DNA of 64,000 nt from a virus, in IMG/VR virus record IMGVR_UViG_3300008085_000023, positions 32,001-96,000 of that record. The stretch is one strand, 5' to 3'. Under the pieces are notes generated by a model. It did not search any database and had not been told where the DNA came from. It saw only the letters and a program-made list of their open reading frames with translations. Positions 3,066 to 64,000 of this stretch are shown here, piece after piece (the first letter of the stretch is position 1; each line of letters starts with the position of its first letter). Position numbers and translations under genes: made by a program.

Positions 3066-3515
3066 TTAATATGGTCTAGGGTTAAGCTCAATGATGTTGA
3101 TATTACTTGCCTCGCTATAGTCACGACCTTCTCCAGCACAGATATAAGCTACCACTGCATGAGTGATCACTGGTTTATTACGAATATGCGTACACAATCC
3201 AGAAACGCAGCGCTCTAGAGACGCACCGGTGTCGATGAAGTCATCTAAGAAGATGTAATTGCCAAACTTACCCATGCTATTATCGCCGCTAATAACTCCA
3301 CCATGGCCTCGGCTTTTACCAACATGGATGTGGCACAGATCCCTTTCAAGCCTGAGCATAACACCCGCTGCGAGAATTGTCCCGCTGGATCCAGTTGATA
3401 CGAGACCGAGGATGTCATTCTCGGCAAGGATTAGCTTTACAGCTTTAACATAATAGGGAAGCACATTCTTAAGTGCGCGGGTTTCGTACAGAGTTGTTCC
3501 ATAATCTATATGCAT
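3066..3515 (-). CDS. phosphoribosyltransferase-fold protein
   Basis: PRPP-binding loop IFLDDFIDTGAS. Confidence 0.75.
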   Translation of the reverse strand: MHIDYGTTLYETRALKNVLPYYVKAVKLILAENDILGLVSTGSSGTILAAGVMLRLERDLCHIHVGKSRGHGGVISGDNSMGKFGNYIFLDDFIDTGASLERCVSGLCTHIRNKPVITHAVVAYICAGEGRDYSEASNINIIELNPRPY

Positions 3516-54520: not shown

Positions 54521-54784
54521 TTATATCTCCATTTTACTATGGCTACCAGCACTCTTATGAATGCCTCTCAATACCTCGCCCCATCGGGATCCCATTTTAC
54601 GTTCAGCACGTTTATGCACTGACACTGTGTCATAAACAAAACTAATGCCAGAATAATCGCGTCTAACCTTACCTTTGGTCGAACACTTCGGGCATTTTTC
54701 ACCAATGGGTACTTCACGATCACTTATTGATAAGTCAACGCAAAACACCTCATTGCAATTTTCACACACATATTGGTATATCAT
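54521..54784 (-). CDS. FmdB-family zinc-ribbon protein
   Basis: YQYVCENC...CPKC. Confidence 0.75.
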   Translation of the reverse strand: MIYQYVCENCNEVFCVDLSISDREVPIGEKCPKCSTKGKVRRDYSGISFVYDTVSVHKRAERKMGSRWGEVLRGIHKSAGSHSKMEI

Positions 54785-57673: not shown

Positions 57674-57749
57674 TGGAGGATGCAGTGAGAATCCAACTCA
57701 CACAATCACGGTTTGCAGCCGTGCGCCTTTAGCATTCAGCCATACACCC
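57674..57749 (-). tRNA. tRNA-Cys(GCA)
   Basis: CACGG-CTGCAAA-CCGTG, CCA. Confidence 0.9.
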
Positions 57750-57962
57750 ATTAAACTACTTTGATCTATATTAACATATTTAGGTGTAATTGTACACCAT
57801 TAGTTTTGCTGCCCAAGGTGAAAGCTCTCACCTTAGGACTTTAAATAGGTCAACCTTTAAGTCGCATTATTGGAATTGCTTCTTCACATATTACATATAT
57901 CGGAGACTCATACGTCCAATTTGACGTCTCCTATTATGCGTATACCGATTGAATGTGTAAAT

Positions 57963-58044
57963 TGGTGCGGATGGTGAGAATCGAACTCACAAATAATTCA
58001 CCAAGGTTTGAGCTTGGCCGCTTTGCCAGATTGCGTACATCCGC
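57963..58044 (-). tRNA. tRNA-Leu(CAA)
   Basis: CCAAG-CTCAAAC-CTTGG. Confidence 0.9.
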
Positions 58045-58053
58045 ATTTTGAAA

Positions 58054-58127
58054 TGGTTGCTTCACCGGGATTCGCACCCAGACAAAGAGCTTCAAAGACT
58101 CCTGTGCTGCTATTACACTATGAAGCA
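58054..58127 (-). tRNA. tRNA-Gln(TTG)
   Basis: GGAGT-CTTTGAA-GCTCT. Confidence 0.9.
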
Positions 58128-58133
58128 ATAAAA

Positions 58134-58215
58134 TGGTACCAGTGGAGGGAATCGAACCCACAAACATATCACCTGCTTCTAAGGCAGGCCGCTTTGCCAG
58201 ATTGCGTACACTGGT
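58134..58215 (-). tRNA. tRNA-Leu(TAG)
   Basis: CCTGC-CTTAGAA-GCAGG. Confidence 0.9.
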
Positions 58216-58379
58216 ATTAAAATGTGTTTAGTAGTGAACTTTACAACGCGAGAATTTATTGCTTCGCTCCACAATCGCTATATCAAGCAATTACTTCTGT
58301 TAGCATCAACCATCCTCGTAGATGTGATATCATCTATCTTCAACGTATTTCACAGTGTGATACCATGACTAAACATAAA

Positions 58380-58463
58380 TGGTGTGGATAGGGAGACTTG
58401 AACTCCCACGCCTTTCAGCACAACGTTCTCGACGTTGCATGTCTGCCATTTCATCATATCCAC
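58380..58463 (-). tRNA. tRNA-Leu(GAG), C33 variant
   Basis: CAACG-TCGAGAA-CGTTG. Confidence 0.85.
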
Positions 58464-58586
58464 ATAAAAGGTTTCGGCCCTTTGGAGATTTGAGCATTAT
58501 CTATATTCTTGCTACTTATGCGCTGGGAATATTGCTTAGACAAGAGGCTTTCCTCATTGGCCTTGACACTCGTCAGTGCCCATTAT

Positions 58587-58668
58587 TGGTGCGGATGGCG
58601 AGACTCGAACTCGCAAATAAATCACCAAGGTTTAAGCTTGGCCGCTTTGCCAGATTGCGTACATCCGC
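58587..58668 (-). tRNA. tRNA-Leu(TAA)
   Basis: CCAAG-CTTAAAC-CTTGG. Confidence 0.9.
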
Positions 58669-58674
58669 ATGAAT

Positions 58675-58712
58675 TGACACTAAAAGGATTCGAACCTTCA
58701 TCTCTCTTACTT
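58675..58712 (-). pseudogene. tRNA 3' fragment (T arm only)
   Basis: GAAGG-TTCGAAT-CCTTT without D/anticodon arms. Confidence 0.5.
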
Positions 58713-58719
58713 TAATCGA

Positions 58720-58795
58720 TGGTGCGATAGGCGGGGTACGATCCCGCAACCTCCACGTTGGCAACGTGGTATTCTCCCAGTTGAATTACTATCGC
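58720..58795 (-). tRNA. tRNA-Gly(GCC)
   Basis: CCACG-TTGCCAA-CGTGG. Confidence 0.9.
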
Positions 58796-58801
58796 ATAAA
58801 C

Positions 58802-58875
58802 TGGAGCCGACAGACAGACTTGAACTGACATCATCTGATTACGAAACAGATATTCTTCCTTTGAACTATATCGGC
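58802..58875 (-). tRNA. tRNA-Thr(CGT)
   Basis: TCTGT-TTCGTAA-TCAGA. Confidence 0.9.
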
Positions 58876-58880
58876 GAAAT

Positions 58881-58956
58881 TGGTGCACCGGCAGGGACTC
58901 GAACCCTGATCTCACGCATTAAAAGTGCGTTGCTAAGCCAATTTAGCTACCGATGC
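58881..58956 (-). tRNA. tRNA-Lys(TTT)
   Basis: ACGCA-CTTTTAA-TGCGT. Confidence 0.9.
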
Positions 58957-58965
58957 ATTTTAAAT

Positions 58966-59041
58966 TGGTACCTCTGTTCGGTAACGATCCGAATTCTCCG
59001 GGGTAAAGGCCCGGTCATCATCCATATAATGTTTCAGAGGC
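58966..59041 (-). tRNA. atypical tRNA-Lys(TTT) (C33, C38, T-loop ATCGTTA)
   Basis: CCGGG-CCTTTAC-CCCGG; body near-identical to 63370-63445. Confidence 0.75.
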
Positions 59042-59050
59042 ATTGTAAAG

Positions 59051-59126
59051 TGGAGCCGACACTGAGACTTAAACTCAGTTCCCATCCGTACCAAGGATGA
59101 ATTCTAATCAGTTGAACTATGTCGGC
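59051..59126 (-). tRNA. tRNA-Thr(GGT)
   Basis: CATCC-TTGGTAC-GGATG. Confidence 0.9.
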
Positions 59127-59137
59127 ATTAAAAAAAA

Positions 59138-59213
59138 TGGTTGGCCTGAGTGGATTTGAACCACTAACCTGCTGAGTCAGAGTCAGCCGCACCGCCAATT
59201 GTGCTACAGGCCA
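59138..59213 (-). tRNA. tRNA-Gln(CTG)
   Basis: GCTGA-CTCTGAC-TCAGC. Confidence 0.9.
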
Positions 59214-59219
59214 ATAAGA

Positions 59220-59294
59220 TGGTCCCTAAGGAGAATTTCGAAATCTCGACATTTCGGATATGAACCGAACGCTCTGCCTCTGAGCTACCTAGGG
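59220..59294 (-). tRNA. tRNA(CAT), elongator Met or Ile2
   Basis: TTCGG-TTCATAT-CCGAA. Confidence 0.85.
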
Positions 59295-59299
59295 ATGAA

Positions 59300-59390
59300 T
59301 GGCGGAAGTAAGAGGTATCGAACCCCAACCGCTTTTACACGGTCCAACTGTTTAGCAAACAGCGCCCATCACCATCAGGGATTTACTTCC
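59300..59390 (-). tRNA. tRNA-Ser(GCT)
   Basis: GCTGT-TTGCTAA-ACAGT, long variable arm. Confidence 0.9.
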
Positions 59391-59396
59391 AAAAAT

Positions 59397-59471
59397 TGGC
59401 TCGCGAGGCTGGATTCGAACCAGCGACAACTTGCTTAACAGGCAAACGCTCTACCACTGAACTACACGCGA
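59397..59471 (-). tRNA. tRNA-Asn(GTT)
   Basis: TTTGC-CTGTTAA-GCAAG. Confidence 0.9.
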
Positions 59472-59478
59472 ATTAAAT

Positions 59479-59554
59479 TGGAGCCGCCACACAGACTCGA
59501 ACTGTGATCACTGGAGTACAAAACCAGGGCTCTAAGCCTTTGAGCTATAGCGGC
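59479..59554 (-). tRNA. tRNA-Thr(TGT)
   Basis: CTGGT-TTTGTAC-TCCAG. Confidence 0.9.
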
Positions 59555-59561
59555 AATAAAT

Positions 59562-59637
59562 TGGTACTCCTACTAGGACTCGAACCTAGACTAAAAGCTT
59601 AGAAGGCTCTTGTGCTATTCCCTTACACCATAAGAGT
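59562..59637 (-). tRNA. tRNA-Arg(TCT)
   Basis: AGAGC-CTTCTAA-GCTTT. Confidence 0.9.
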
Positions 59638-59645
59638 ATTAAAAT

Positions 59646-59721
59646 TGGTGGCACAGGTGGGGAATGATCCCACGACCGGCAGGGTTTCAATCTGCTACTC
59701 TACCAACTGAGTTACTGTACC
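59646..59721 (-). tRNA. tRNA-Phe(GAA)
   Basis: GCAGA-TTGAAAC-CCTGC. Confidence 0.9.
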
Positions 59722-59728
59722 ATGAAAT

Positions 59729-59812
59729 TGGTGGCGAAGGTAGGAATTGCACTTACAAGTCCGAAGAGGGTGATTTACAATCACTTGAGCCCACTACCTG
59801 CTCAACTCCGCC
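59729..59812 (-). tRNA. tRNA-Tyr(GTA)
   Basis: AGTGA-TTGTAAA-TCACC. Confidence 0.85.
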
Positions 59813-59821
59813 GTGTTAAAT

Positions 59822-59910
59822 TGGTGGGAAATGGTGGTAACGCACCACTTGTCTACTTCCGTTCTGTTTTTCGACGTTGGTTTTACAGACCAATGAACGG
59901 TACATCTCCC
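59822..59910 (-). tRNA. atypical D-armless tRNA-Tyr(GTA)-like RNA
   Basis: Acceptor GGGAGAT/ATTTCCC-ACCA, TTGGT-CTGTAAA-ACCAA; no D hairpin; CCGTTC complementary to GAACGG in variable loop. Confidence 0.7.
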
Positions 59911-59976
59911 AAATAAAAATATGGGCCCTTATTACGGGTTTTCGACCGCGCGAGGGGCTAACGCCATGCTATTTGT

Positions 59977-60143
59977 TTTTGAAAGAGGTTCACCATAAAC
60001 GCTCAACAATTACCTAGGATGTTAAGCTTTCTCTGCTGACGTATCTTGCGATTGGATAGCTAATCCGGTGCGGCGAGAGTCGATTTAAGGACGTTTGCCA
60101 GACAAAACTAGAAACTGACCACAGACTGGTGAATCTTTCAAAA
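59977..60143 (-). ncRNA. putative rod-shaped ncRNA, 6S-like architecture
   Basis: Terminal helix TTTTGAAAGA-TTCACCA / TGGTGAA-CC-TCTTTCAAAA, central unpaired region, apical stem. Confidence 0.45.
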
Positions 60144-60220
60144 TGGTAGGACAGTTCAGAATCGAACTGAAATTATTTCTCGGTGTAAACGAGGTGCCAT
60201 AACCATTAGGCGACTGTCCC
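60144..60220 (-). tRNA. tRNA-Val(TAC)
   Basis: CCTCG-TTTACAC-CGAGA. Confidence 0.9.
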
Positions 60221-60900
60221 TACATAAATTTTCCACGAAGACCATCTCGTTTGCGGCCTTTCGTGTGATGTTGTGTATTTTCGTATCTCTTAATCAATGC
60301 TTCTTTTACATTTTTTACATGCTCAAGTGTTTTTGGTGTGCCCTTAAGCGCGTTTTTTACAATTGCTCTTCGACAATTCTCTGAACAAGACATACGATCC
60401 AAGCTAATTGATTTACCACAGTTTTTACAAAGGCCAGAACCCCTTTTATTCCAAGCGCTTCTGCCTTTCACCCACCCTTTCGGAATAATGGTATCATTAG
60501 AAATTCGGCTATTCTCTTTAAGCTCGATATTAGAAATCCACATTGTTCCAAACGAGCCATTAAATTTACCAACGCGCTTCTTACCATTAGCGCGCCATGT
60601 ATCTAAGCACATTTTTCGAACCGCTTCATACATGCGGGAATTGCGAATATGAGGAATACCACGTTCTTCACATCTCATTGCCATCATATGACAAGCATGG
60701 GCCATCTGTTTATTTTTATATATTCTAAATAAAAGTAGATGAGCAATCCAATGTTCACGACCTGTTAAAATTACTATATTAGTTAAAGAATAATCACCAC
60801 CCATTGATTTGGGTAATATGTGATGCCGCTCGGTATAGCCTATGGCCGGGTGCTGAAGACGTGTATTGATTAGTGAATCGTAAATATATTTGTAGTTCAT
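60220..60900 (-). CDS. HNH homing endonuclease in tRNA array
   Basis: Start MNYKYIYDSL after TATAAATA; YTERHHILPKSMGG...EHWIAHLLL. Confidence 0.85.
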   Translation of the reverse strand: MNYKYIYDSLINTRLQHPAIGYTERHHILPKSMGGDYSLTNIVILTGREHWIAHLLLFRIYKNKQMAHACHMMAMRCEERGIPHIRNSRMYEAVRKMCLDTWRANGKKRVGKFNGSFGTMWISNIELKENSRISNDTIIPKGWVKGRSAWNKRGSGLCKNCGKSISLDRMSCSENCRRAIVKNALKGTPKTLEHVKNVKEALIKRYENTQHHTKGRKRDGLRGKFM

Positions 60901-60920
60901 AAGGTTATTTATATATTTGC

Positions 60921-60984
60921 GAACTTTCAAACCCCCACAATCTGCGTGTAAAACAGAGGTTCTAGACCTTTGAACTAACAGGGC
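60921..60984 (-). pseudogene. 3'-truncated tRNA-Val(TAC)
   Basis: GCCCTGT, D arm, TCTGT-TTTACAC-GCAGA; breaks off in T loop just before HNH promoter. Confidence 0.75.
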
Positions 60985-60992
60985 ATTAAAAT

Positions 60993-61083
60993 TGGCGGAT
61001 GGAGTGAGACTCGAACTCACACGTGTTTTACCACTAACTGTTTTCAAGACAGCAGCCCGTAGACCGACTTGGCTTATCCATCC
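60993..61083 (-). tRNA. tRNA-Ser(TGA)
   Basis: GCTGT-CTTGAAA-ACAGT, long variable arm. Confidence 0.9.
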
Positions 61084-61093
61084 ATAAAAAATT

Positions 61094-61163
61094 GTTCGGT
61101 GTCCTACCGTTAGACGACCACCCCGCAGTGGAGTAAGCAGGACTCGAACCTGCATTTCCGAAC
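61094..61163 (-). ncRNA. circularly permuted tRNA-like RNA (YrlA-type topology)
   Basis: Order: anticodon-stem 3' strand, T arm, closed acceptor stem, D arm, anticodon-stem 5' strand. Confidence 0.75.
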
Positions 61164-61169
61164 GTTCAT

Positions 61170-61268
61170 TGGTCAGGGATGTGGGATTCGAACCCACGAG
61201 GCATACACGCTTAGTATACCTATCCGGTTCCAAGCCGGACGAAGATAACCAGACTCTTCCAATCCCTG
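61170..61268 (-). tRNA. tRNA-Pro(TGG) with long variable arm
   Basis: C1-G72, A73; TCCGG-CTTGGAA-CCGGA; 8-bp variable stem. Confidence 0.85.
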
Positions 61269-61273
61269 TAAAT

Positions 61274-61348
61274 TGGTGCCCTCTGAGAGAATCAAACTCC
61301 CATCATTCGGTTCGTAGCCGAGTATTCTATTCGTTGAAATAAGAGGGC
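61274..61348 (-). tRNA. tRNA-Arg(ACG)
   Basis: CTCGG-CTACGAA-CCGAA. Confidence 0.9.
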
Positions 61349-61359
61349 ATCTTATAAAT

Positions 61360-61445
61360 TGGCACCTAGGGTAGGAGTCGAACCTACAGTTGACTTTCGT
61401 CGACGGGTTAACAGCCCGCTGCAATACCATTCTGCTCACCTAGGT
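61360..61445 (-). tRNA. tRNA-Asn(GTT) with extended variable arm
   Basis: GCGGG-CTGTTAA-CCCGT; GAC-GAAA-GTC variable hairpin; G73. Confidence 0.85.
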
Positions 61446-61453
61446 ATTAAAAT

Positions 61454-61527
61454 TGGCGCCCCATAGGAGTATCGATCTCCTTCTGCTACCGTGACAGGGT
61501 AGTGTGCTTCCATTACACCAATGGGGC
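61454..61527 (-). tRNA. tRNA-Asp(GTC)
   Basis: CTACC-CTGTCAC-GGTAG. Confidence 0.9.
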
Positions 61528-61535
61528 TTGTAAAT

Positions 61536-61610
61536 TGGTGCGGCAACTGAGTAACGCTCTCAGAACTAATGGGTGGAAGCCATTCGTGTATCTATTAACA
61601 CCTCTGCCGC
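61536..61610 (-). tRNA. tRNA-Gly(TCC)
   Basis: AATGG-CTTCCAC-CCATT. Confidence 0.85.
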
Positions 61611-61751
61611 TCGAAAAATGAGAGAGGATCCTTACCATCACTATTCTAAATTTGTGATGATCATTTAATTTCCGGATAGGAGAAGTCTTTAGAAACCTCT
61701 ACGTCCTTGCCCTACTCTGAAACCCCTCGTAACAGAATCAACAGGCAATAT

Positions 61752-61826
61752 TGGGTTGACCAACGGAAATCGAATCCGTATCCCCGCATTCACAGTGCAG
61801 TGCTTTTGCCGTTAAGCTATGGCCAA
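61752..61826 (-). tRNA. tRNA-His(GTG)
   Basis: CTGCA-CTGTGAA-TGCGG, C73. Confidence 0.9.
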
Positions 61827-61837
61827 ATTGTAAAAAT

Positions 61838-61914
61838 TGGTGCCCCCATCGGGCTTCGAACCCGAATCGCCGGATTGAGAGTCCAGTATTCTATACCGTT
61901 TAAACTATGGGGAC
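61838..61914 (-). tRNA. tRNA-Glu(CTC)
   Basis: CTGGA-CTCTCAA-TCCGG. Confidence 0.9.
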
Positions 61915-61921
61915 GATAAAT

Positions 61922-61996
61922 TGGTGCCTCCTGTAAAACTCGAACTTACAACGTCAGGTTCGTAGCCTGATGTGATATCCGTTTCACCAAAGAAGC
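61922..61996 (-). tRNA. tRNA-Arg(ACG), second copy
   Basis: TCAGG-CTACGAA-CCTGA. Confidence 0.9.
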
Positions 61997-62005
61997 AATA
62001 CCGTA

Positions 62006-62674
62006 TTAAAACTTTATCTTACGGCCGATAAGCCAGCCCTCAGGCACCAGCATATCTTTTGGAACTCGTTTTGAGACCTTTTCATATGGGTTGTAAATCC
62101 ACTTGGTCCCAAATTGGGAATTCCGACTGCCCAATTGACTAATTTTATTAGCCGACCCGATTCTTTTCTTAGCATCTTCTGAATGAGTTTTGCCAAGAAA
62201 TGCTCGAGTATTCTTACGCTTTAAGAAATCTGGATCATCTTCAATTTTTAGTTTCAAACCCGTAACCCCTTGAATTGCGAGAATACTTCGCCAATTAGGA
62301 CCATACTTCGCCTTTAATTTTTCATCTGCAGCGATCCGGCCTTTACGGGCAACTTCAACGTTGGAAAATCCATTGAGATTGTTTTTATTGATTAAATCCC
62401 AACCTCCAGAACCACCAACCTTTAGGTTATATGTGTTTTCTTCAGTTAAGAAATCTTCATTAACGATCTCAGCTTCTTTAGCATACATGTCTTCAGGGTT
62501 GTCGTAAACGAACAAAATCTCTTTGGTAAAGTTTTCAATACCATTCTTCTTTTGAGCTCGTTTTAGATACTTACCTGAACCCATATAATTGTCATTCGGA
62601 TCAATGGTCTTATGGCTTCCAATATAGAACTTGCCATTGATCCGATTCGTTATCTTGTATATCGTATAGAACAT
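62006..62674 (-). CDS. GIY-YIG (Seg-like) homing endonuclease in tRNA array
   Basis: TIYKITNRINGKFYIGSH, YMGSG, YNLKVGG; TATAAATA upstream. Confidence 0.9.
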   Translation of the reverse strand: MFYTIYKITNRINGKFYIGSHKTIDPNDNYMGSGKYLKRAQKKNGIENFTKEILFVYDNPEDMYAKEAEIVNEDFLTEENTYNLKVGGSGGWDLINKNNLNGFSNVEVARKGRIAADEKLKAKYGPNWRSILAIQGVTGLKLKIEDDPDFLKRKNTRAFLGKTHSEDAKKRIGSANKISQLGSRNSQFGTKWIYNPYEKVSKRVPKDMLVPEGWLIGRKIKF

Positions 62675-62730
62675 AGAATTACTCCATGTTCTTATTTATA
62701 CAAGTTCGAGTCTTGACTAGACTCTGAAAG

Positions 62731-62803
62731 TAGCGGAGGTTGGAATCGAACCAACGTCACTGGGGTTATGAGCCGCAGCGGGGAACCAGCACCCCACTCT
62801 GCA
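62731..62803 (-). tRNA. tRNA-fMet-like (CAT), no encoded CCA
   Basis: CTCATAA loop, 1:72 mismatch, A73. Confidence 0.75.
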
Positions 62804-62806
62804 AAT

Positions 62807-62881
62807 TGGTACCCCTGAGCGGTTTCGATCCGCCTCCCTTTGGGTGAAAACCAAAGATCCTAGCCAGTAGACGACAGGGGC
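62807..62881 (-). tRNA. tRNA-Glu(TTC)
   Basis: TTTGG-TTTTCAC-CCAAA. Confidence 0.9.
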
Positions 62882-62893
62882 ATTAAAAATTGT

Positions 62894-62968
62894 TGGTGGA
62901 CGATGCCGAACTCGAATCGGCATCCTCTGAGTGCAGGTCAGAGATTCTAGCCTTTGAACTAATCGCCC
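62894..62968 (-). tRNA. tRNA-Ala(TGC), C33 variant
   Basis: G3.U70; TCTGA-CCTGCAC-TCAGA. Confidence 0.9.
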
Positions 62969-63118
62969 TTAAAATGAAAATATAATGATCTATGTTTTAG
63001 CTGTTGATCACGGTCTACAACCATATCAACAAATTTCGAAAATGATAATGTTGATAAGCAAAATTCAGCTTTAAGCTGAGAAATATACTTTGCGAACTTT
63101 GAACAACTTCTATGCAAT

Positions 63119-63196
63119 TGGTACGAGGAGAGGGCCTTGAACCCCCATATCAACTGGTTATAAGCCAGCCGGCTTCACCGATTTGCCTATCCTCGC
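63119..63196 (-). tRNA. tRNA-Ile(TAT)
   Basis: GCTGG-CTTATAA-CCAGT. Confidence 0.9.
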
Positions 63197-63203
63197 ATTA
63201 AAA

Positions 63204-63278
63204 TGGTCCGCGATGGTGGTAACGCACCACCTTTCCCTGTGTATCAGACAGGAGTAATAACTTTTATACTAATCGCGG
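63204..63278 (-). tRNA. tRNA-Ile(GAT)
   Basis: CCTGT-CTGATAC-ACAGG. Confidence 0.9.
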
Positions 63279-63284
63279 ATAAAT

Positions 63285-63359
63285 TGGCAGGTCCACCCAG
63301 ATTCGAACTGAGACAATGAGTTTTGGAGACTCTCGTGCTACGCATTACACTATGAACCT
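63285..63359 (-). tRNA. tRNA-Trp(CCA)
   Basis: AGAGT-CTCCAAA-ACTCA. Confidence 0.9.
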
Positions 63360-63369
63360 AACGTAAAAA

Positions 63370-63445
63370 TGGTACCCCCGTTCGGTAACGATCCGAATTC
63401 TTCCGGTTAAGAGCCGGAACATCATCCATATAATGTTTCGGGGGC
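63370..63445 (-). tRNA. tRNA-Lys(CTT), first tRNA of array
   Basis: TCCGG-CTCTTAA-CCGGA; T-loop ATCGTTA. Confidence 0.85.
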
Positions 63446-63540
63446 AACTTGAAAAAAGGACACTCGCATTTTTGATAACAAGGTTGTAGAGTGTCAGCTC
63501 TCTATCCTTGGATTTTTTCCAATTTTCAAAACTATATTCA

Positions 63541-63553
63541 ATTGTCAATGATC
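63541..63553 (-). promoter_or_regulatory. boxA-like antitermination element
   Basis: GATCATTGACAAT just downstream of terminator; resembles rrn boxA. Confidence 0.5.
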
Positions 63554-63559
63554 GATAAC

Positions 63560-63591
63560 AAAAAAGCCTCTTGGCTTTTCAGCTAAGAGGC
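63560..63591 (-). terminator. intrinsic terminator (attenuator) ahead of tRNA array
   Basis: GCCTCTTAGCT-GAAA-AGCCAAGAGGC-TTTTTT. Confidence 0.9.
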
Positions 63592-63623
63592 AAACATAAA
63601 CGAGCTATGTATGCGTCTTAACC
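63581..63623 (-). promoter_or_regulatory. antiterminator hairpin overlapping leader stop codon and terminator 5' arm
   Basis: GGTTAAGACGCATACATAG-CTCGT-TTATGTTTGCCTCTTAGCT (17 of 19 positions pair). Confidence 0.8.
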
Positions 63624-63719
63624 GACACCCTCATCAGGTGTAATTTCGGCATTATGTTTCCATTGTGTGGAACATGTCCCTGCCAGGGGATTACTAAATC
63701 TATATAACTTCTTTATCAT
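63618..63719 (-). CDS. 33-aa leader peptide containing all 20 amino acids
   Basis: MIKKLYRFSNPLAGTCSTQWKHNAEITPDEGVG*; below ORF-track cutoff. Confidence 0.75.
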   Translation of the reverse strand: MIKKLYRFSNPLAGTCSTQWKHNAEITPDEGVG

Positions 63720-63727
63720 TCTACTCT

Positions 63728-63758
63728 TATTTATACAACTTACTGCCTTCAATCTCAA
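63728..63758 (-). promoter_or_regulatory. promoter for leader/tRNA array
   Basis: T4 late-type TATAAATA (63728-63735) overlapping TTGAGA-N17-TATAAA. Confidence 0.7.
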
Positions 63759-63790
63759 ATTATTTTCAATTATTTTCAAACTCTGGTAAT

Positions 63791-63830
63791 ACTATACCAC
63801 AATGTCCGTGGATTGTACACCGTTATTTTT
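63791..63830 (-). promoter_or_regulatory. early promoter
   Basis: AAAATAACGGTGTACA-N18-TATAGT. Confidence 0.8.
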
Positions 63831-63876: not shown

Positions 63877-63980
63877 AGTATAACACAATGGCCATGGCAT
63901 GTACACCATTATTTTCAGTTTTCGGTAACTTTTTTGCTAAGTTGGCCATTATCAGGTACTTAGGGCTAAAAATAGTTTCC
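63877..63980 (-). repeat. early promoter plus start of extended intergenic module
   Basis: Promoter; TAAGT-N15-ACTTA with TATCAGGTACTTA IHF-like site. Confidence 0.7.
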
Positions 63981-64000
63981 CGTACCGCGCGCGCGCCTAT

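Follow-up and report, generated by a model that had tools for sequence, protein, structure and literature searches.

The trpL, hisL, thrL, and ilvGMEDA leaders are the familiar examples of transcription attenuation by translation of a short open reading frame (ORF), and the erm and vmlR leaders are antibiotic-responsive attenuators that likewise act through a leader ORF. T-box riboswitches couple the state of a tRNA to the choice between antiterminator and terminator; these RNAs carry a specifier loop and a T-box bulge and bind the tRNA directly, without translation. The tR2 study shows that the distance from stop codon to hairpin decides whether a ribosome blocks folding (PMC4824070). Phage tRNA sets are now viewed as a form of counter-defense against tRNA-cleaving immunity (PMC10264068, PMC11555353, PMC11464382). 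A literature search found no publication on the attenuation of phage tRNA genes.

The phage leader described here lies at the head of the main tRNA array of its genome, and the best single explanation for it is a ribosome-gated (translation-gated) transcription attenuator. This reading is offered tentatively, with confidence that falls a little short of even. It is supported by sequence anatomy, predicted energetics, and a gene-start signature in one genome. We infer from these that the ORF is translated, that its terminator acts in vivo, and that ribosome stalling alters read-through.

The leader belongs to IMG/VR record IMGVR_UViG_3300008085_000023, a phage sequence of 141,905 bp with direct terminal repeats, 42% G+C, and 39 tRNA genes. 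Bases 32001-96000 of this record make up the window, which is the whole stretch of 64,000 nucleotides that was analyzed and to which coordinates refer unless the genome or another contig is named. Nearly all genes of the phage are on the - strand, its replication proteins are T4-like, and among cultured phages the nearest to it by helicase (54% identity) is Methylophilales phage Melnitz, which has only 4 tRNAs. The leader region sits between a split class II ribonucleotide reductase (RNR) gene, whose stop is at 63997, and the first tRNA of the array at 63445. Because the same 7.8-kb sequence was recovered independently in at least seven JGI and ENA assemblies, identical or with one base different, an assembly artifact is excluded. 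Other assemblies of the phage are 100% identical and thus yield no information on polymorphism. The RNR gene itself (genome 95997-99465; 63997-64000 at the window edge) is broken into pieces that match intein-splicing Pfam entries, and the gene that intervenes carries a late promoter of its own.

The features of the region are as follows.

63877-63915, - strand: early promoter P_E1, with an A-rich UP element, GGTGTACA, 14 nt, and TGnTATACT (TGTACA-17-TATACT with TG)
63791-63829, - strand: second early promoter, P_E2, tandem to P_E1; start predicted near 63784
63728-63735, - strand: T4-type late promoter motif TATAAATA; predicted start A63722, giving a 3-nt leader ahead of the ATG
63618-63719, - strand: leader ORF of 33 codons plus TAA, with all 20 amino acids, each residue at most 3 times, and 28 distinct codons
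63580-63624, - strand: predicted antiterminator hairpin of 18-19 pairs, dG -17.9; its 5' arm includes the last sense codon and the stop, and its 3' arm doubles as the terminator's 5' arm
63560-63591, - strand: predicted intrinsic terminator T1, with a stem at 63591-63566 (7+3 bp, dG -15.6) followed by U6 (63565-63560)
63452-63495, - strand: second predicted hairpin, dG -9.6, followed by U6, directly ahead of the first tRNA
57674-63445, - strand: array of 34 co-oriented tRNA genes (ARAGORN) for all 20 amino acids, interspersed with homing-endonuclease genes that have their own late promoters

The original prediction placed a promoter ahead of the ORF. This claim stands for two early promoters of the sigma-70 type, whose -10 elements end at 63877 and 63791, but it missed the late motif at 63735-63728. 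Early promoters of this phage follow a consensus of an A-rich UP element, GGTGTACA, 14 nt, and TGgTATAaT, with about 26 copies that are nearly all on the - strand, and P_E1 and P_E2 are the sole tandem pair in the genome. The late motif TATAAATA is present in 33 copies on the - strand of the genome versus 1 on the + strand. In T4, this motif is the late promoter, located at -13 to -6 (PMC1524935). A gp55 homolog is encoded in the genome (E 2e-11), and thus both marks of a T4-type late transcription unit, TATAAATA and a gene for a gp55-type sigma factor, are present.

Downstream of 14 other late motifs, an ATG at a distance of 5-9 nt opens an ORF of 76-1831 amino acids, which suggests that late mRNAs of this phage are leaderless or nearly so. 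The motif at 63735-63728 is followed by 8 nt and then the leader ATG, and the leader therefore bears the signature common to the starts of these 14 real genes. This signature may offset the weak Shine-Dalgarno sequence of the leader ORF (-2.4 kcal/mol; 71% of long ORFs score better).

Several other observations can be made on the promoters of this phage and a relative. Early promoters of the form gAAAATAAtGGTGTACA-N14-TGgTATAaT, for example at sites 1538, 7769, 10192, 12116, 18210, 32243, 44528, and 56269, usually lie 25-50 nt ahead of a gene with an AAGGAG-type Shine-Dalgarno sequence. Late genes appear to be leaderless, with an ATG exactly 5 nt (10 cases) or 6-9 nt after TATAAATA and no Shine-Dalgarno sequence (for example at 54525, 49012, 37199, 35504, 56712, and 60913), and the same spacing from TATAAATA to ATG is seen in a relative, G005 (positions 3138, 6355, and 8603 of contig L026). 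Outside the window, at genome positions 109091-109328 on the - strand, a solitary tRNA-Thr is preceded by an early promoter, whose start region, ATTACCAGA, matches that of P_E2, and by a leader of about 200 nt that is highly structured and lacks a long ORF.

Such a gene start might simply belong to an ordinary tiny late gene, or the ORF might be incidental and followed by a leaky terminator, with the array expressed by constitutive read-through and with the hairpin and the all-20 composition being coincidences of a large scan. Small ORFs abound in T4-like genomes, and there is nothing unusual about an early promoter ahead of tRNA genes (PMC1524935). Weighed against this, four features of the leader are jointly unlikely by chance, and one of them, an ATG at the spacing set by a late promoter that opens an ORF of at least 33 codons, has an estimated chance of roughly 1%. 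On balance this explanation is considered doubtful, although it must be taken seriously, and further evidence on both sides of it comes from the ORF and from the hairpins.

The original description of the ORF was reproduced in full, including its position at 63719-63618 on the - strand, its 33 codons, its 28 distinct codons, and the presence of every amino acid. With the residue compositions of this genome, a stretch of 33 codons would include every amino acid with a probability of 5.7e-4 to 7e-4, and 0.05 ORFs of this kind with 33 codons or fewer are expected genome-wide. Among 488 ATG-initiated ORFs of 25-40 codons in six frames, the leader ORF alone contains all 20 residues, and it is the shortest such ORF in the six frames of the 142-kb genome, the next being 41 amino acids long. 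At about 6e-4, the composition speaks against an ordinary mini-gene. However, the property was spotted post hoc among about 250,000 scanned windows and thus cannot carry the case alone. Furthermore, across thousands of phage tRNA arrays, chance is estimated to give a few leader ORFs that reach all 20 amino acids within 40 codons, as the ordinary explanation would have it.

Other properties of the ORF are less distinctive. The tendency of repeated residues to switch codons had been noted as a possible signal, but 7% of ORFs with 31-35 codons use at least 28 distinct codons, and the pattern is not significant. A match between leader and array at the level of codons or anticodons was also considered and rejected. 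The array tRNAs read 27 of the 33 leader codons, compared with 83% of average phage codons, which is no enrichment, and the 22 of 30 array anticodons that the leader ORF touches place it merely in the top 7%. The lack of such a match favors the ordinary mini-gene. The design signal, if real, is amino acid identity rather than tRNA species. Gene callers left the leader ORF uncalled in every assembly, and its codon-usage score, intermediate between those of genes and those of spurious ORFs, favors coding by a likelihood ratio of about 3.8. With all 20 amino acids present and no residue found more than three times, the ORF contains no run of cognate codons, and single-codon stalls would therefore need to suffice for regulation. 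The leaders of the solitary tRNAs of this genome were examined as well, and no comparable ORF was found in them.

As originally proposed, a hairpin that sequesters the 5' arm of the terminator can be drawn. It spans 63624-63580 and shares 63591-63580 with the T1 stem. T1 starts 26 nt after the stop codon (TAA, 63620-63618), and this stop codon falls inside the antiterminator arm, which is a point against an ordinary mini-gene. About seven strong intrinsic terminators, T1 among them, are found on the - strand of the 142-kb genome. When each is folded with 40-100 nt of upstream RNA, the probability that T1 forms is 0.00-0.01, compared with 0.93 or more for the other six. T1 is therefore predicted to be conditional, the sole one of the seven to be out-competed by upstream RNA, and this too counts against a merely leaky terminator. 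Dinucleotide shuffles of the upstream 40-130 nt disrupt T1 in 9-16% of cases, however, a frequency that favors coincidence, and a ddG at least as large as the native value is seen in 1-6%. The antiterminator and terminator states are only 1-3 kcal/mol apart at equilibrium.

The effect of a ribosome was modeled by folding solely the RNA 3' of its footprint, and locally. Minimum free energy (MFE) folds of the whole transcript with ribosome masks were dropped because long-range pairing to the A-rich 5' UTR made them misleading, and local folding was used instead. In the local folds the antiterminator is favored when the A site is at any of codons 1-29, and its probability is 0.97-0.99 for codons 20-28 and also with no ribosome. 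The terminator has a probability of 0.93-0.98 for A-site positions from codon 32 to the stop, and already at codon 31 with a longer footprint. The original suggestion to fold the RNA with and without the stop-codon footprint masked gave the predicted outcome, as masking raises the probability of the terminator from 0.00 to 0.98.

The related claim that stalling at almost any codon permits read-through is borne out in silico for codons 1-29. It does not extend to Val, which is found solely at codon 32, where a stall would favor termination in the masking model, and Asp, found solely at codon 29, is at the edge of the zone. Codons 1-28 contain 18 amino acids (chance P 0.023) and codons 1-30 contain 19 (P 0.004). 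The exclusion of Val and the marginal place of Asp are somewhat easier to accept if the ORF is an ordinary or incidental one. A search for an anti-antiterminator (1:2 pairing) found that the best upstream partner of the antiterminator arm reaches only -6.4 kcal/mol. With no well-pairing segment upstream, untranslated RNA should read through (antiterminator probability 0.98 without a ribosome), and this default would be predicted to restrict the dynamic range of the switch.

These structures could also operate without translation. The unit might produce a stable sRNA that ends at T1, or it might act as an RNA switch or a processing module that responds to polymerase speed or to a factor of the phage or the host, with the ORF left untranslated. 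The whole leader is more structured than its shuffles (z = -2.9) and has two further hairpins inside the ORF, and strong tandem promoters with a good terminator 225-310 nt on resemble an sRNA unit, as would be expected for such an element. The weak Shine-Dalgarno sequence fits as well, and sRNAs derived from attenuators are known (PMC6614838). Nevertheless, Rfam covariance models, including leader and T-box families, gave no match to 63446-63800 at E<=1, and T1 is predicted not to form in free RNA, so that a discrete sRNA would need something that masks the antiterminator arm. The spacing from late promoter to ATG, together with the codon-usage likelihood ratio, also favors translation. Overall, a translation-independent element is judged unlikely.

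Additional features of the RNA around T1 and beyond can be described. The second hairpin at 63452-63495 may act as an additional, weak terminator or as a processing site, or may be a chance structure, and a 15-codon frame that starts with TTG (63541-63494, - strand) ends at its foot. The late transcript is predicted to begin with a segment (63713-63722, AUG included) that is complementary to the 9-10 nt that follow the U-tract of T1 (63550-63559). This long-range helix, 63713-63722/63550-63559, is present in the MFE structure and would enclose the whole leader in read-through transcripts. Also after T1 is a boxA-like element in which, by eye, about 8 of 11 positions match the rrn boxA.

The original count of 37 tRNAs directly downstream must be revised, although the coverage of all 20 amino acids is correct. 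The contiguous array has 34 tRNA genes, and the other three lie 46-52 kb away. No consensus promoter was found between T1 and the first seven tRNAs, and no promoter of the early consensus between T1 and 57798; the first internal late motif of the array is at 62700, ahead of a homing endonuclease gene. Thus, all recognized transcription into the head of the array crosses the T1 switch.

Some members of the array are unusual. The gene called first by ARAGORN, a tRNA-Lys(CTT) at 63370-63445 on the - strand, receives no score from the Rfam tRNA model at E<=1 and has an odd D/T region, and further array members fall below this model or match it weakly. The homing-endonuclease genes within or after the array (GIY-YIG, HNH, and SegE-like) each have a late motif on the - strand, at 62700, 60913, and 56712. 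At 62700, the ATG that follows the motif after five nucleotides opens a frame of only two codons, and this frame contains the Shine-Dalgarno sequence of the real gene.

Searches for related leaders covered both nucleotide and protein space. A blastn search of the leader against 50,697 phage records returned nothing. With the adjacent RNR gene and RNase H as anchors, loci from IMG/VR and JGI metagenomes revealed no syntenic tRNA array, and blastn and tblastn searches with the leader across these loci also returned nothing. Scans for exact patterns of the terminator and of tRNA-Trp were empty, as were a word-based protein search with a 53-amino-acid form and an exact look-up of the 33-amino-acid peptide. 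An exhaustive phmmer search of this peptide against 1.84 billion representatives yielded no homolog; its four matches were rejected as spurious because they are repeat proteins scored over four or five stretches. The failure of these searches to find a homologous leader is consistent with an ordinary or incidental ORF. The peptide itself is less so, being a soluble chain of 33 amino acids with no homolog among those representatives and no evident function of its own.

The leader of the tRNA array in a distant phage, G004, has a plain terminator, a promoter, and a 67-amino-acid ORF, with no switch. Homologs of the GIY-YIG endonuclease in the array have at most 66% identity. The only relative that shares the promoter types is G005, whose array is located elsewhere and is truncated by the start of the contig in each of three assemblies. 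This array is found about 8 kb upstream of RNR. At that position the phage studied here has only solitary tRNA-Gln and tRNA-Thr genes, which indicates that the main array has moved or expanded. The three G005 assemblies (L062, L239, and L240) are independent, and all start within 6 nt of the same point inside the tRNA array. This common start could be a physical genome end or a repeat.

If the leader is a ribosome-gated attenuator, its operation can be outlined. Transcripts from the two early promoters and the late promoter would enter the 33-codon ORF and then the region of two mutually exclusive hairpins. A ribosome that keeps pace with RNA polymerase and has reached the last codons or the stop would cover the 5' arm of the antiterminator, T1 would then fold, and the transcript would end near 63560. 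With no ribosome present, or with one that lags or is stalled anywhere from codon 1 to about 29, the antiterminator would fold first and the polymerase would proceed into the tRNA genes. Under such a hairpin choice, tRNA synthesis should rise when decoding is slow and fall when it is fast. Coupling would be tight for the late transcript, since its AUG is 3 nt from the 5' end. Early transcripts, which have a leader of 65-150 nt and a weak Shine-Dalgarno sequence, may be poorly translated and mostly read through.

A narrower claim contained within the attenuator reading is that selection favored the all-20 composition because it broadens the set of shortages that can be sensed, making the ORF a pan-amino-acid "progress meter." We regard this as possible but improbable. 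In such a scheme, the shortage, lack of charging, or cleavage of almost any tRNA would delay the lead ribosome, allow the antiterminator to form, and thereby raise the supply of a complete set of replacement tRNAs. Any link between the leader and anticodon nucleases is purely conjectural.

Should the proposal prove correct, attenuation without runs of cognate codons, and attenuation of tRNA genes, would each be described for the first time in this leader. The leader might provide a self-limiting countermeasure against host defenses that target tRNAs or against the phage's own shut-off. Setting tRNA output by the speed of ribosomes across all amino acids would represent a new attenuation logic, with breadth in place of specificity, and the leader would offer a compact, portable sensor of global decoding capacity. 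One prediction that follows is that starvation for Val should not induce read-through, whereas starvation for Ile, Lys, or Ser should.

The proposed mechanism has partial parallels in several known systems. It shares with T-box riboswitches a tie between the state of tRNA and the choice of antiterminator or terminator, but the phage leader has no Rfam T-box match, and no bulge of the T-box kind is seen in it. The distance principle of the tR2 system would apply in the phage leader to the antiterminator arm. There the ribosome suppresses the terminator itself, whereas in the phage leader the antiterminator would be blocked and T1 freed. The antibiotic-responsive mef(E)/mel attenuator (PMC4335068) is similar in that general ribosome stalling in a short leader ORF relieves a terminator. 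Attenuators of this type respond to drug-bound ribosomes, control resistance genes, and usually terminate by default, whereas the phage leader is proposed to respond to slow decoding and to set tRNA output.

In organization, the phage leader resembles the trpL, hisL, thrL, and ilvGMEDA leaders. As in these systems, a short ORF lies between the promoter and the structural genes, one arm is common to terminator and antiterminator, the position of the stop codon is such that a ribosome terminating there would mask the antiterminator, and a ribosome stalled upstream is predicted to favor read-through. As proposed, the phage leader is a variant of leader-peptide attenuation outside the trp/his type. 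In place of a run of cognate codons it has each amino acid one to three times, and it lacks a 1:2 anti-antiterminator, such that its untranslated RNA is predicted to read through rather than terminate. Finally, it is a phage-borne unit with early and late promoters, and it would control tRNAs in place of biosynthetic enzymes.
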